DNA of 64,000 nt from IMG/VR virus record IMGVR_UViG_2728369562_000003, positions 21,712 to 85,711 of that record; one strand, given 5' to 3'. The notes beneath the pieces were generated by a model, which did not search any database, was not told the DNA's origin, and saw only the letters and a program-made list of their open reading frames with translations. Origin of the DNA: a virus. Lineage: Duplodnaviria > Caudoviricetes. A program made the translations under genes and the position numbers. This document shows, one piece after another, positions 28,249 through 35,012 of the stretch; within the stretch, counting starts at the first letter, position 1; each line of letters begins with the position of its first letter.

Positions 28249-29466
28249 TTAATTCAATATGTAATCATACTGAATTGTACGACCTTTACCAGACTCATAA
28301 ATTGATAGGTTTGCTCCAGCTTTGGCACCTGTCATTAAGCTGTCACTGTATTCATCGGAACCCATTACAGAAGGGAGTTGTATAACTTGGATATTATGAG
28401 TGGCTGCTTCACCTACAGTGAGCATGTTTCCGTGGTGGAAGTGGGAGATGTACATGTAATCGTAGAATTTTCGTTTCATCTGTGAGATGTCACGAATGGC
28501 ATTCTTCTTGTTTTTAATCTGGTGTCCGTGACATGCGACAATTTCAAATTCAAGTAATTTAAAATCCACAATTCCTTCGTCGTATAAAGGAACTTCAATT
28601 CGCTCATTGTCTTTGAGTACGTCATGGATATAAGTAGCTATAATACGCTCTACATCTTCCTTAGGCATTTCCGAGCGATTTGTATTATGTAATCTTAGTT
28701 CAGTATGATTTGCAGAAGGGATATGTATGTACTTAATTTTGACGTACTTAGAAAGTTCTAGCAGCCATTCAGCTTTGTACCTAGAATATTTAATTACCTG
28801 GTCAATAAAACCGTACTGAAGGGCAGTTAATTGCGATACGCGCAATGCCATACCTTCAACACTATCAGCACCATTTAATACGACCAGCTCATCTAAATTT
28901 TCTTTGTGAATGTACTCAACAGTTTCAGAAAGAATTTGATTCATACGCTGCAGATATATCTGTTCGTTGTATTCATTGTTGTTGCTTTTAAATTGCTTCC
29001 CGAAATGTTCATCTCCAAATCCTAGAACTGCAGCTCTTTTTCTTTCGCTTCTTTTCAATGGATAGAAGGAAGGGGGAGCGAGAGTGCCTATTTTCTCAAT
29101 TGCTTCAGTTACATTTTCATATAGAAGCTCTGTTCGTCCTTTGACACGTGTGCTTTTATGTATTTCATGCTTTACAGCTTGAAGCTTCTTTCTCTCTTCC
29201 ATGATTTCAACCTTTTTCATTTCCAGTTCAAGGAGAGAAGAGTTTGATTCAGCTGACTTTTCTTTTTGGTATTCAACCCCCTCAATGAAGTTGTTGAACC
29301 ATTTTCTATAAGCTGATTCACCTTTAGATTCGCCGGTTTCTTTGTTTATTAACTCTTTGATTTCTTCCCAGTTTAGATTATAAATGTCTTTATTAGAGCA
29401 GATTCTTATTTTCCATTCTTTAAGGTTTTCATCTGAGTGACGCTTAGTTTGAATAGGATCGATCAT
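28249..29466 (-). CDS. yonJ: YonJ metallophosphoesterase-fold protein
   Basis: GDEHFG, GADSVEG, SANH, CHGH, SHFHH motifs. Confidence 0.85.
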   Translation of the reverse strand: MIDPIQTKRHSDENLKEWKIRICSNKDIYNLNWEEIKELINKETGESKGESAYRKWFNNFIEGVEYQKEKSAESNSSLLELEMKKVEIMEERKKLQAVKHEIHKSTRVKGRTELLYENVTEAIEKIGTLAPPSFYPLKRSERKRAAVLGFGDEHFGKQFKSNNNEYNEQIYLQRMNQILSETVEYIHKENLDELVVLNGADSVEGMALRVSQLTALQYGFIDQVIKYSRYKAEWLLELSKYVKIKYIHIPSANHTELRLHNTNRSEMPKEDVERIIATYIHDVLKDNERIEVPLYDEGIVDFKLLEFEIVACHGHQIKNKKNAIRDISQMKRKFYDYMYISHFHHGNMLTVGEAATHNIQVIQLPSVMGSDEYSDSLMTGAKAGANLSIYESGKGRTIQYDYILN

Positions 29467-29482
29467 TCAGTCAATCATCTCC

Positions 29483-29674
29483 TTACTCAACGTCTTTAAC
29501 AGGAAGTTCATTTTCTTCTTTTACAGTAATTGAAACATTCTTTCCATTAAACTCTGAGAGAATTTCTTTGAAGTCATATGTGTATTCAGCTTCTTTAGTT
29601 TGTTCAGTAACTTCCATTACGTCCATATCGAAAAAGCCTTTAACATTAATTTGATGTACTTTTTTGCTTGCCAT
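29483..29674 (-). CDS. yonK: YonK protein
   Basis: 63 aa MASKKVHQINVKG..., synteny. Confidence 0.85.
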   Translation of the reverse strand: MASKKVHQINVKGFFDMDVMEVTEQTKEAEYTYDFKEILSEFNGKNVSITVKEENELPVKDVE

Positions 29675-29944: not shown

Positions 29945-30118
29945 TTGATAGACAAAGTTTTGAATGCCTTTATTATAATAGGTGTTTTGTTGATAGTTGG
30001 AGCGGTTACTGTTTTTAAAGATTTTGAATATCACCAATATCTTCGTTTTGGTGGGGCAGCATTGATAGCTTTTGGCTATATGTTTGGTTATGACAAAGTA
30101 AAAGCTAAAAAAGAGTAA
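29945..30118 (+). CDS. Small two-TM membrane protein (57 aa, MIDKVLNAFIIIGVLL...)
   Basis: AAGGAG RBS with TTG start, TATAAT at 29905; opposite to late operon. Confidence 0.65.
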   Translation: MIDKVLNAFIIIGVLLIVGAVTVFKDFEYHQYLRFGGAALIAFGYMFGYDKVKAKKE

Positions 30119-30289
30119 ATGACTTTTAAATTCTATTGTTCCAGTTATTTTCTTCCCCCTCTCACCTACATCAGTAACTCACGTAGGAACGCAAGCCTTC
30201 GGATCGACAGGGAAATCTGAAAATAACAAAAGACGTCATAATGACGTCTTCAGGAACTCCTTGTACAGCTTGGCACATGAGTTAAATTA

Positions 30290-30556
30290 TTGGAACAACA
30301 GAGAACAGAGTATATTTTTGATTAAAATATCACTAATAAAGGTTTGCGTCCGTAAACTCGTAAATCTCGTAATTCGTAAGCTGTAAAACGTAATCCGTCT
30401 CCAACCTAGGAAATAAATGAGTTTTGGTATTACAGTTTAGATACGCTCTAAACTAAAGCGGCTTTCTACTTCTCTGTTGTCCAAGCTGGGCAGTTTTACA
30501 CCCAGCTATCAAGATAAAAGTGATTTTACCCTCATAGCTAAGTTAAAACCTTAGCT
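30290..30556 (-). ncRNA. Candidate structured RNA downstream of youB with UUACG repeats
   Basis: Long-range stem 30290-30305/30470-30484 enclosing CGTAA repeats; three further hairpins. Confidence 0.45.
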
Positions 30557-30557
30557 T

Positions 30558-31073
30558 TTATAGATACTTATCTGCAGCTTCAAACTCAATTTCATAATTA
30601 TGATTAGCTTTTTCAATAGAGTTTGAAAGACGATTAGCCATTCTTTCTAACTTTAATCCTTTAGTTTGCATCTTATCAGGATCAAACAAGGCTTCACGAT
30701 AACTAATAACATCAGAATAAGAATTTACTCGTTCAGTTTTCTGAGAACGACCGTAACTTTTGAGTTTATTCGCTTCACCTCTAAGTTGCTGTGCTAATTC
30801 AAGCGCTTCTGTGATCGATAATTCCTTTTCATCCCACAAAACTTTTGCATCCAGGTTGGCTTTAGCGATTAGTACTACCAATTCACGATAATCTTTTTTA
30901 GTCGATTCTAGCTCAGCTGTGATTTGGTCTACAGTTTTTGTTGGTTTTGTATATTTTTCATCCTTATCATGTTCAACATATGCAACACTATCTCGTTCCT
31001 GTAAAAGTTCCTGAATACGTTTTGAGATTGCATTTCTTAAAGGTAAAGCTTCAAATAAAGCGATTTTTGACAT
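30558..31073 (-). CDS. youB: YouB, DIP1984/DUF6847-like coiled-coil protein
   Basis: LFEALPLR..., SITEAL, IEKAN motifs characteristic of the DIP1984 family. Confidence 0.75.
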   Translation of the reverse strand: MSKIALFEALPLRNAISKRIQELLQERDSVAYVEHDKDEKYTKPTKTVDQITAELESTKKDYRELVVLIAKANLDAKVLWDEKELSITEALELAQQLRGEANKLKSYGRSQKTERVNSYSDVISYREALFDPDKMQTKGLKLERMANRLSNSIEKANHNYEIEFEAADKYL

Positions 31074-31179
31074 TTATTATCTTCTCCTTTAGACATACAT
31101 CTTTTATATTCTAATAGATTCTTAAATAAATTGCCAATAAAACAAATTTTATCCTTAGTTATAATCAAAACAATCGAAA

Positions 31180-31810
31180 AGGTAAGACCCATATAACCCT
31201 CTTCAGAGACATTCCTGTCTTCAGGTCACACACCTTATCTACATACAATGCGTGTAGATCGCCAGTCTCTTATTTTGCACAGTTTTCTCTGACCCGTGTA
31301 AGGAGGTATGTGCATGGGAAAGATAAGTCTCCATTCAGAATGAAGGAGAAGTAGTGAATAAATAGCGAATATGTTGCTAAGTGAAATTTAAGGTAAGGAA
31401 GACGCATCTGCCATACCTAAGTGTAAGCCGAAGCAGTACACCGCAATTAATATTCAGACTTCATGTCACCCATAGTAAGACTGTGATGGGATTCACCCTA
31501 CATAAACAGCTTGAGTAGCCTAGGTCTTACCGACATGTTTAGCCCGATAATAGTCATTTACCTGTCTCCTTTAGATACAGACATCCGAGTTAACCTCGCA
31601 CCCTCATAAATGACTATTATCCGACTAACTGCAATGACCAACCGCAGTTTGTGTCAGAATGATACAGAAAATAGGGGAGTAGATATTGTTTAATCAAGAA
31701 AAGCTAGTCCACACACAGGAGAGGAATCTCCACTAATGTTCATTCAAATTAGTCTGTGCCTCCATAAATGAACATTAGTGGAGAACTGATATCCCATATA
31801 TCAGTAATTA
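31180..31810 (-). ncRNA. Candidate large structured non-coding RNA between yonN and youB
   Basis: No credible ORF; GGTAAGACC/GGTCTTACC long-range pairing, 15-bp and 16-bp perfect stems, cUUCGg loop on minus strand. Confidence 0.45.
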
Positions 31811-31959
31811 ACAACTCTAATTAATTAACCCGGAGATGAAGATGAAAAGAGGGGAGGTCGACAATTCCCTCCATAATTTCTAACTCTGCCACTTTTAGGA
31901 GCATAAGCTCTTTGTGACGAAGCGTGCAGGTAGCCTTTCCTGTCGTCCTCATTAACTGA

Positions 31960-32238
31960 TTATTTAGCTTTGACTGCGTCTTTAAGTGCTTTTGCCGGCT
32001 TAAATGCAGGTGCTTTTGTAGCCGGAATATCAATTTCCTCTCCTGTCTGGGGATTTCTCCCTTTGCGAGCTGCACGTTCACGAACTTCAAATGTTCCGAA
32101 ACCAGGAATACTTACTTTTTCTCCACTTTTTAATGCCTCTGAAATAGTGTCAAAGACTTTTTCGACACTGGGAGCTCCTTCTTTTTTAGATACCCCTTGT
32201 TTTTCTGCCACTTTAGCGATTAGTTCTGTTTTATTCAT
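31960..32238 (-). CDS. yonN: HU-like DNA-binding protein YonN
   Basis: [27 protein letters not shown] motifs. Confidence 0.95.
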
Positions 32239-32489
32239 AATCAATTTCCTCCTAAGTAAATTTAAATTTATTCTAAATGAACAATAAAGATTGTCTTTTA
32301 TATAGACGGGGGGAAACGTACTAGCCCTTTTATGTGGAAATTAGCTTTCTGTCTCCCTTATGACGATTATCACCAAAAGTGCTCTCAACCCAGTAGCACC
32401 AAGGGATAAAGGCACTTTTTTGTTGAAGTTTTTCCGGTAAAATCGCTGTACCCCTTGGGGGAGTAAGGCTCAAGGCACTTTTATTACCG

Positions 32490-35012
32490 TTACACCTTTT
32501 GACTTCTAAACCTACTGACTCGTTCTTTTGTTTTTTGTTTATTCCTTTTAACTGTACATTTTCCACAGAAAAGTTTCTTACTTGTTTTAGCCCTAAATAG
32601 CGTTTTACAATCTCCACAAATTCTTAATGTTTTCAGGTTGTGTATTAGACTGTTCAATATACAAGTACCGAAACATTCCCACAAAGTCGATTTGAACTTA
32701 CTCTTCTTTTTATATAGATACTTAACTAAAACATCAGTAACATATTGCTCATCATTATGGATTTTCAACAATCTGTCTTTAATGATCTTATAGACATAAT
32801 GTTTTTGCCCCGGCTTAATGTCTTCATCATTCATAAGCCATTTCTTGTTCTGGTCTAATCGTTTGTATTCACTAATAATTGTCTCGTCCAACTTAATCTC
32901 CTTGTTCTTGAGCAGGAAACGATAATCGAACTTTCCTGCAACAGCTGCGAAATTAATTCGGTCAGAAGGGATAATGGAGTCTAACTTATTTACTGTGCTC
33001 TCATTAAGTAACTCAACGCTATGTTCTTCTTTATCCTTTGCATAGATGAAGAAGTGGGGGACTTTATTTTTTATGTAATCTTTGATTTTTTCATCAACAT
33101 GATCAGGACGGGTAGGCATGAATAAGGTTTTTGCAAAATCGATAGTAAAGTTATTTTCCATACATAGCCATTTGATCACGTCCAGATTTATATTGTCGCT
33201 GTTCCATATCTTAGTAATATTGTTACTGTACTCCCCGATATTGATCCCATAAGCAAGAGTTAGTGCTTCATAGATGTTTCTGCTATTAATCTCTTGTTTC
33301 TGGGCTACAGACATTTCATAATACAAAGGAACGATGTTCTCCATATTACGCTTGGCAATATTGACGATTAGCTCATCAGAAATAATTAAGGCCTTATCCC
33401 CGTCGTTATCAAACTGCAGCAGTTTCGATATCGGATCATGAATGCTGGTATAAACACCTGGCGTAATGAACCACTTTTCATATTCCTCATCTTTTTTGTT
33501 CCACCTAACACCATGCTCTCTAAATAGATGAGGGGAGCGGAGGATATCAATGTGTCCTTCATCATATAAAGAACAATAAACATTGCTGCCGGTAAGAAGT
33601 CCTTTTGGATTCTCAATTCCAAGAAACAGTCTTTCACAAAAAGCATATAGATCTGGGCACAAATACGTATAACGAGCGTCACTGACAAGTAATTTTCCTG
33701 ATTTGGCGTCCTTAATCATACTCCTCTTCTTATTCTTAATGATTTCTTTGGTGTGATCATCATTTAGCAGCTCAGGATATATTAGTAGAGCTTCTTGAAG
33801 GCTTGTCTTATTTTTATTTTTCTCGGTAGCCCCCAAAACTTTCATCATTGTTTCTTTATCAGTGCCTAATTGAGTAATCTCACTAACAGTCTTTGAGCTG
33901 ATTTGTTTCAATTCCTCATCTGTGATATCAGTGAGTGTTTGTAGCATCTGGTAAGTCAGTTTTCCCTCAACAGATGGATCTTCTTCATTTAATTTAGCTC
34001 CTAAACATTCATACTTTTTAAATTTAGAGCGATAATCATCCCAAGAATCATAGTACTTCCACATCTTAAACTGGCTTTTCGTAAAAATTATTTGGATATC
34101 ATCTTTAATAATGTCCCATTCTTTACCGTAGACGTCCTTAACTATAAATGAACTGTGTTTTTCAGCAAACTTTTTAAAATCAAATGGAACTAGGAGACCC
34201 TTAACCCAAGGTAATCTGACCATAAAGCTTTTCTGGCTCAAACTGGGAAGCATCATTCCGCAACCATCTGTATGTTCTATAGGAATATCCATAACTTTAC
34301 GAGTGATTTCATATGTATCACGGTCAATATAATCAACCAGGCTGGAAACGTTTGTTTCTAAGTCATTTACGACAATTGCTTTATCAATATCAATTTCCCA
34401 TGGACTGCTGGCACTATTCGATAAGGCCATGTAGCTATTCCATTTGTTTATGCTGCTTCCACCTTGAGCATTGATATGCTCCACACTAAGACCACAAGTT
34501 AAAGCATTTTGATACTTATCTAAGGTGCTTTGCTTGATAAAACAAGACTTTTTGGTTCGTATTTGACCGGCACTGCTAGTGAAATAAACGTATTTCTCAT
34601 TGTTATGTATGAATCCTTTATCTATAATGTCCCTTAAAATTTGAAAATGATAAGTTTGGACGACAATAATCTCTTCAGAGAGTGTGTTTTCTTTGATTCC
34701 CAATGTCCGTGTTAAGACTGAATCAAATAATGCAATCACATTATTATCTTTCAGGGAATCTGTTCTAAGGGTTCTTATTTGATTATGATTGTTAAAGGCG
34801 TTATAAAGATTTTCTTTTAAGGAAATAATCCTTTGCGTTATGTACTTCTTATGTTTTTTATCAATATTTTCGAGTTTTTTAAGATGATCTCTGTACCTAA
34901 TGGATTTTAAAATCTTGTTATGTAATTTGTTTTCTTGATCATTATAAAAAGCAGAAGTATCAATACTGTAAATATGTACTTGCTTATTTAGACCGTCTTT
35001 TTTTCCTTTCAA
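32490..35012 (-). CDS. yonO: Single-subunit double-psi-barrel RNA polymerase YonO
   Basis: Catalytic DNDGD, RSP and TDGCG motifs; 840 aa. Confidence 0.95.

Follow-up and report, generated by a model that had tools for sequence, protein, structure and literature searches.

Directly behind a small gene of an SPbeta-type provirus lies a previously undescribed structured RNA, which we read as the 3′ portion of this DIP1984-like gene's transcript; gene and RNA would form an obligate cassette, and the encoded protein would bind the RNA. To this reading we give a probability of about 0.5. The RNA is conserved and structured, with compensatory changes in three helices, and belongs to the strand of the gene (minus), and gene and RNA move as one cassette among unrelated Bacillus-group phages. 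The window, by which we mean the whole 64,000-nt stretch of DNA analysed, is part of an SPbeta-type provirus record, and the cassette sits there between yonK and yonN (Table 1). The initial annotation gave the gene the name youB, which we do not retain, as SPBc2 lacks this ORF in its yonK-yonN interval and a tblastn search of 50,697 phage records with the protein matched 9 records only, all of them from Agatevirus. The Agatevirus myophages Bp8p-C, Bp8p-T, Bobb, phiAGATE and SDFMU_Pbc encode a 49%-identical protein.

Table 1 Features in and around the gene-RNA cassette, in order of window position.
Feature	Position	Strand	Basis or remark
yonJ-like ORF	28249-29466	-	named via annotated relatives Goe14 and SPBc2
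YonK	29483-29674	-	Pfam YonK, E 1.5e-30
DUF3800-VIII RNA (RF03075)	30151-30216	-	53.6 bits, gathering score 40.2
Intrinsic terminator	30222-30251	-	10-bp stem and U-rich tail; phage backbone
Cassette	30282-31175		absent from Goe14 and SPBc2
RNA region	30289-30557	-	about 270 nt
P4 closing stem, 3′ strand	30290-30309	-	inner 30306-30309, outer 30290-30305; RNA end
Eight ACG/ACA triplets	30347-30398	-	at 30398, 30391, 30384 (ACA), 30377, 30370, 30361, 30353, 30349; spacings 7, 7, 7, 7, 9, 8, 4 nt
P5	30435-30453	-	fold mapping; conserved loop GCGUA at 30442-30446
P4 closing stem, 5′ strand	30465-30484	-	outer 30470-30484, bulged G 30469, inner 30465-30468
5′ hairpin domain	30485-30555	-	begins 2 nt past the stop codon; P1, P2 and P3, or one long hairpin
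P3	30485-30506	-	fold mapping
P2	30504-30539	-	14 pairs; fold mapping and covariation
P1	30537-30555	-	fold mapping
171-aa ORF	30558-31073	-	remotely DIP1984/DUF6847-like, phrog_25222; profile and fold matches
Shine-Dalgarno AAGGAG	31084-31089	-	10 nt ahead of the ATG; read from sequence
Promoter-like site (putative)	31108-31137	-	TTGGCA-18 nt-TAGAAT, 10/12, consensus scan; inside the cassette
yonN, HU-like	31960-32244	-	named via annotated relatives Goe14 and SPBc2
yonO	32490-35012	-	named via annotated relatives Goe14 and SPBc2

The minus strand of 30222-30560 is predicted to fold at -103 kcal/mol (z -6.97; none of 100 shuffled sequences did as well), and the plus-strand fold reaches a z of -4.08. 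The closing stem P4 encloses both P5 and an array of ACG triplets; its outer part comprises 15 pairs with one bulged U and extends inwards by four further pairs (30465-30468 with 30306-30309). The long-range stem, the three hairpins and the five CGTAA and one TGTAA copies described in the initial annotation were all found in place when sequence and fold were read again. The hairpins map to P1, P3 and P5, with the amendment that the first and second may instead merge with the intervening hairpin into one long hairpin. In 10 of 11 lineages this alternative of about 70 nt is the fold of lowest energy, and in all 11 its base is found 0-5 nt past the stop codon, so a terminating ribosome would need to open it; cognate pairing scored -5.1 against -3.3 kcal/mol for non-cognate pairing, a weak test. 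The long duplex of the 5′ domain could be an RNase III site. In the window, four AGCU-type strands within 30485-30557 (minus strand) permit either three hairpins or the one of about 70 nt.

Covariation was examined in 19 sequences with RNAalifold, which found P2 as well as parts of P4 and P5 and placed compensatory changes in 17 of 24 predicted pairs. Furthermore, on structures that we specified ourselves, the 15 pairs of inner P4 and P5 were paired in 88.0% of 283 cells, against 70.3 ± 1.6 after shuffling (0 of 500 as high) and 43-52% when the partners were slid, and 13 of the 15 had changed on both sides. For the 14 pairs of P2, specified in the same way, 92.0% of 264 cells were paired (74.0 ± 1.7 shuffled, 0 of 500 as high; 37-51% slid), with 10 pairs changed on both sides. 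These counts are lowered by the MAFFT alignments, which mis-register three loci (L011, L012 and L033) in places. The two strands of P4 paired with a mean of -20.1 kcal/mol when cognate vs -11.0 (sd 4.5) when non-cognate, and the cognate partner was the best in its row in 8 of 12 lineages, L033 and L034 being weak. Among 547 cells, 43 were G-U and 11 were A-C. This bias, a terminator-like hairpin on the gene strand 29-63 nt past P4 in 10 of 18 sequences, and the position of the first helix 0-5 nt past the stop codon together place the RNA on the gene strand. Sequence itself, beyond pairing, is conserved in inner P4 (bulged GUG/G, then UGG with CCG), in the P5 loop GCGUA and in the ACG triplets, and these places look like protein- or RNA-contact sites. 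The P5 loop is also complementary to the UACG(C/U) of the repeat units, and at L011 and L012 the loops read CAAAA and CCAAA, with UUUUG and UUUGG just 3′ of the array; a covarying pseudoknot, as judged by eye in the sequences, is possible.

The array lies within P4, 160-210 nt past the stop codon. On the plus strand of the window it reads as CGTAA at 30351, 30359, 30368, 30375 and 30389 and TGTAA at 30382. Window-wide, CGTAA occurs 86 times on both strands (64.5 ± 8.1 in shuffles), a rate from which about 0.03 copies would be expected per 43 nt of one strand; five were observed. Tandem Repeats Finder reported only a weak period-8 array at 30351-30387 (4.8 copies, 71% matches, score 37). The spaced motif had at first been taken as UUACG. 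A periodic array at about 7 nt is indeed conserved, with a core that is ACG rather than UUACG: relatives have 5-8 ACG, ACA or ACC triplets, ACG being the usual form, joined by variable linkers and spaced mostly by 7 nt or multiples of 7. In 32 of 36 loci a chain of at least five AC[GAC] triplets, 7-9 nt apart, was present where expected. It was missing at L019, at L035, which is truncated, and at L037 and L038, both GC-rich; the array is thus irregular in three full-length loci (L019, L037 and L038). No chain of at least six was found at 24 canonical DUF6847 loci, three of which had a chain of five elsewhere. The predicted unpaired probability of the triplets is hardly higher than that of the remaining RNA (0.41 vs 0.35).

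Direct and inverted repeats occur together at origins as well, and the region might be an element that works as DNA, such as an origin, iterons, or a recombination or packaging site, the structure being read in DNA. A look-alike search by language model brought up a cluster called Siphovirus Gp157, a replication-module family, which is a lead only and found no support in Pfam. Nevertheless, this reading is contradicted by compensatory changes with a one-strand G-U bias (43 vs 11) and by a 7-nt period that mismatches the helical repeat of duplex DNA, and the element is always placed between stop codon and terminator; we consider it highly improbable.

Given an RNA on the gene strand, we turn to its association with the gene. 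Searches with an alignment of 19 proteins turned up 7 loci in species genomes, 16 in viral contigs and 10 in metagenomes. Sixty-six loci were scanned with an nhmmer profile of the RNA that had been built from the window and 18 loci, and the RNA was found directly downstream of the gene in 36 of 36 loci with an intact copy (L003-L038); three duplicate entries of these loci matched as well. The 36 proteins are 35-99% identical to that of the window and come from SPbeta-like prophages, Agatevirus myophages and metagenomes; many of the loci are closely related, and they amount to about 9-10 independent lineages. Eighteen were outside the training set of the profile, many of them near-identical to training rows. 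By nhmmer, the RNA was detected at 0 of 24 canonical DUF6847 loci taken from 401 Bacillota genomes and at neither of the two SPbeta reference loci (Goe14 and SPBc2). The suggestion that a discrete folded RNA is tied to this gene was therefore borne out by covariation and by both counts. Its extension to DIP1984/DUF6847 genes in general failed for the canonical family and applies only to the phage-borne subfamily phrog_25222.

The DNA just past the Agatevirus stop codon aligns to window positions 30433-30548 at 73-74% identity, and the Agatevirus RNA, searched against the 50,697 phage records, matched exactly the 9 that carry the protein. A sequence-only covariance model found four places in three of 91 Bacillaceae genomes, all already known via the gene, and one copy in the window's own record. 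Across these 91 genomes and the 50,697 phage records, no copy of the RNA was found without the gene. Conversely, a decayed gene at L039 (976-1474), with pieces in two frames, a missing N-terminus and a replaced C-terminus, is not followed by the RNA, which suggests that gene and RNA are lost jointly. The best reading of this pattern is an obligate two-part phage accessory module; the co-occurrence could also merely reflect the dependence of the RNA on the promoter of the gene.

Homology of the window to Goe14 and SPBc2 reaches 30281 and starts again at 31176, which identifies the cassette between these points as an insertion. It contains the promoter-like site, the ORF and the RNA, the latter down to the final base (30290) of the closing stem. 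The terminator and the DUF3800-VIII RNA lie outside it in the phage backbone, and the segment 30221-30281, which includes the terminator, is common to SPBc2 at 88.5% identity. The neighbouring genes vary by lineage (HNH endonucleases, a ligase, a transposase fragment, a tail lysin, tRNAs), and the RNA is the sole constant partner of the gene across lineages.

Several flanks carry features of their own. At L008 (2900-3419), a group II intron domain match (52.5 bits) and an HNH-like ORF adjoin the cassette, while at L032 (2402-3193) an HNH endonuclease ORF lies immediately 3′ of the RNA; such mobile-element neighbours may help the cassette spread. The Agatevirus cassettes (L003-L006) are located within a tRNA cluster, with a tRNA-Met about 170 nt past the RNA, and at L011 a tRNA-Arg(CCG) precedes the gene by about 630 nt; in the remaining lineages no tRNA lies within 1.5 kb. 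One genome of Bacillus glycinifermentans holds two cassette copies on separate contigs (L007 and L010), of which the L010 copy shares the backbone terminator and DUF3800-VIII context of the window.

A consensus scan found no internal promoter, and the structure abuts the stop codon, from which we infer co-transcription of the RNA as a 3′ UTR. The transcript would start at the promoter-like site of the cassette, continue through ORF and RNA and probably end at the backbone terminator (30251-30222). RNA-seq contigs from three studies contain a variant of the cassette at 95-99% identity. In X1 a single contig covers 30345-31350 at a depth of 321. In X2 the depth is 11,667 for a 60-nt unitig over 30436-30488 and 40 for the 4.7-kb contig over the ORF, which fits a stable RNA species outlasting the mRNA, with the reservation that contig depth is a rough and poor measure of expression, that DNA carry-over is possible, and that strand and ends are invisible in such contigs. 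The raw reads of a Ribo-seq run (X24) gave 0 on the stretch.

An RNA that acts in cis alone would be organised in much the same way. As a 3′ UTR it would determine how stable its own mRNA is, or how that mRNA is processed or translated, perhaps in an autoregulatory manner, and do nothing in trans, which suits a structure that starts 0-5 nt past the stop codon in 11 of 11 lineages, the failure to find an internal promoter, and a 5′ domain with two alternative pairings. However, a closed multi-domain RNA of about 270 nt with conserved triplets far exceeds the needs of known 3′ stabilisers, and the P4-P5 fragment is much deeper than the ORF in X2. We regard a purely cis-acting role as quite unlikely.

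The 171-aa protein matches phrog_25222 (E 7e-50), a phrog of unknown function. It scores 26.3 bits against Pfam DUF6847 and 35.9 bits against NCBIfam DIP1984_fam, below the respective curated cut-offs of 27 and 70. At E up to 1, a DUF6847 match was obtained for 16 of 19 subfamily members, and hhalign indicated remote profile similarity to the DIP1984/DUF6847 proteins (66%, E 5.6e-5). An AlphaFold2 model built with 19 relatives (pLDDT 92.3) has four long helices and small beta-hairpins. Foldseek gave 3kdq as its best fold match (E 1.3e-5, TM 0.63/0.68), and VIA aligned 152 residues of the two (Z 12.9, rmsd 4.3), the next chain reaching Z 8.6. Judged from this predicted model, the protein shares the fold of the solved DIP1984/DUF6847 member 3kdq, a C. 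diphtheriae protein of unknown function and its only clear structural relative. In fold searches, the DIP1984/DUF6847 fold also turned up in uncharacterised proteins from many phages and giant viruses. The subfamily thus agrees with the canonical family in fold and remote profile similarity and departs from it in scoring under both cut-offs and in having the RNA, which canonical members lack (0 of 24). The 19 subfamily members are near neutral rather than basic (median pI 6.0), and Pfam at E up to 1 recognised no known RNA-binding domain in them. Weak matches to Ku_C and RRM_3 (E of about 0.01 in 5-6 of the 19) were treated as noise, and 6un9 came up in a sequence search of solved structures as a weak partial match only (E 0.0066).

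The initial annotation had invoked type III toxin-antitoxin logic, in which a repeat RNA neutralises a toxic protein. In ToxIN, CptIN and TenpIN, tandem RNA repeats of about 34-36 nt stand upstream of the toxin gene with a terminator in between, and the toxin is a ToxN/AbiQ-type endoribonuclease. The element described here likewise combines a repeat-bearing RNA with a small phage protein gene in one transcription unit, and it is mobile and cassette-like, as type III systems lie on mobile elements. It differs in repeat length, gene order and protein fold: its units are 7-9 nt with variable linkers and are not pseudoknot-forming repeats, its RNA follows the gene and no terminator separates the two, and its protein has an all-helical DIP1984-type fold. 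No ToxN/AbiQ-type toxin was found, Pfam yielding DUF6847 only and 3kdq being the best fold match, and PADLOC returned nothing meaningful for the protein (sole match Cmr1 at E 0.027). Repeat size, gene order and fold contradict the toxin-antitoxin idea, which we drop as having very little chance of being right.

The RNA might also act alone as a decoy or sponge, its array or its GCGUA loop titrating a host RNA-binding protein, RNase or RNA, with the gene only supplying transcription or acting separately. In CsrB and RsmZ, GGA motifs in hairpin loops titrate a global regulator encoded elsewhere, and periodic short motifs are typical of such sponge RNAs. The RNA here is similarly a noncoding RNA with many copies of a short motif; further, in X2 a fragment of it greatly exceeds the ORF part in abundance, and the protein has no RNA-binding signature. 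Unlike CsrB and RsmZ, it is tied to one phage gene, and strictly so, to a single gene subfamily across about 9-10 lineages with differing other neighbours. An independent RNA would be expected behind other genes sometimes, and none was found there in the 91 Bacillaceae genomes and 50,697 phage records, which makes a sponge acting without the gene product unlikely.

We therefore return to a protein and an RNA that work together, for which three kinds of known systems offer comparison. In Bacillus, the trp leader and hut mRNA carry identical triplets with short variable spacers that are read by an oligomeric protein, TRAP and HutP, respectively, and in HutP sites a triplet and a 4-nt spacer make a 7-nt period. 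The ACG array also consists of several triplets with short spacers and has the period of HutP. Its triplet is ACG, whereas theirs is (G/U)AG; it is located 3′, inside a closed stem, whereas theirs are in 5′ leaders that control a terminator; and the adjacent protein has no TRAP or HutP domain (no Pfam match in the 19 members at E up to 1). A second comparison is with omega-RNA (TnpB/IscB) and Y RNA (Rsr), structured RNAs encoded next to, or at the 3′ end or just beyond, the gene whose protein they bind. Y RNAs have a long closing stem with a conserved bulged protein-binding site, and the RNA described here, at the 3′ end of its gene, has a long bulged closing stem as well. It differs from both in the absence of a nuclease or Ro/TROVE domain, of transposon ends and of any Rfam match. 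As for a Y RNA/Rsr module, the neighbours are YonK and the HU-like gene, with no Ro60 (TROVE) among them, and a YrlA-type match in Rfam is absent. A retron ncRNA, which has closing inverted repeats, was considered too and set aside, no reverse transcriptase being present among the genes that flank the element. The third comprises gene-associated phage RNA motifs such as the adjacent DUF3800-VIII RNA (RF03075), again conserved and structured, of unknown function, and named after the gene family linked to them. The DUF3800-VIII RNA is 64 nt long and unrelated in sequence and structure, whereas the ACG-array RNA has about 270 nt and belongs to no Rfam family.

Rfam 15 gave no match to 30289-30557 at E up to 10, nor to the RNA of eight other lineages at E up to 0.1, and a full-text search of part of the literature for DUF6847/DIP1984 and for ACG/UACG repeats found nothing relevant. 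The RNA is thus a new RNA family and, with its gene, a new gene-RNA module, present in about 9-10 lineages and absent from Rfam 15 and from the portion of the literature that was searched.

As for how the module might work, the gene-plus-RNA pair may act as a protein-RNA particle. The encoded protein would bind the RNA at the ACG array, at the bulged stem or at both, giving a ribonucleoprotein in which several protein copies would sit about 7 nt apart. The near-neutral charge of the protein and the failure of Pfam to recognise an RNA-binding domain in it speak against such binding. By analogy, the 7-nt period would suit one protomer per triplet, and the working logic probably resembles that of the known periodic-motif RNA-protein systems. 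Such a particle might, one step further, serve the phage in host takeover or counter-defence. Taken in full, the proposal would be a new phage ribonucleoprotein class, with DIP1984-fold copies at 7-nt intervals on an ACG array inside a closed 3′ UTR scaffold, used for host takeover or counter-defence; we put it forward tentatively, as a rather unlikely reading in this complete form. If true, it would give the DIP1984/DUF6847 fold its first function.

The surroundings of the cassette in the window are themselves rich in RNA motifs. The DUF3800-VIII RNA follows directly past the backbone terminator, about 70 nt downstream of the ACG-array RNA, and the motif is annotated in Goe14 as well. Skipping-rope matches weakly at 31845-31954 (minus strand; E 0.012), its 23.8 bits falling short of the 36.7 required by the gathering score. 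The place is equivalent to that of the skipping-rope annotated next to hup in Goe14, and 31100-31960 is a non-coding stretch of about 850 nt. In SPbeta-like phages, the spacer between yonK and yonN seems to be an island that harbours several noncoding RNAs. On the plus strand (29945-30118), a 57-aa ORF with two hydrophobic stretches lies between yonK and the DUF3800-VIII RNA, and Goe14 has a hypothetical CDS annotated at the equivalent place.

The finding adds a new RNA family tied to a protein family with a solved structure, and the strict linkage of gene and RNA leads to the testable claim that the function of the protein involves this RNA. The conserved ACG array with its 7-nt period offers a direct entry point for mutagenesis, EMSA and cryo-EM. 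Both temperate SPbeta-like and lytic Agatevirus phages of laboratory Bacillus hosts carry the cassette, which makes genetics easy. A positive outcome would establish a new kind of phage ribonucleoprotein and would help to annotate the ncRNA-rich yonK-yonN spacer of SPbeta-like phages.
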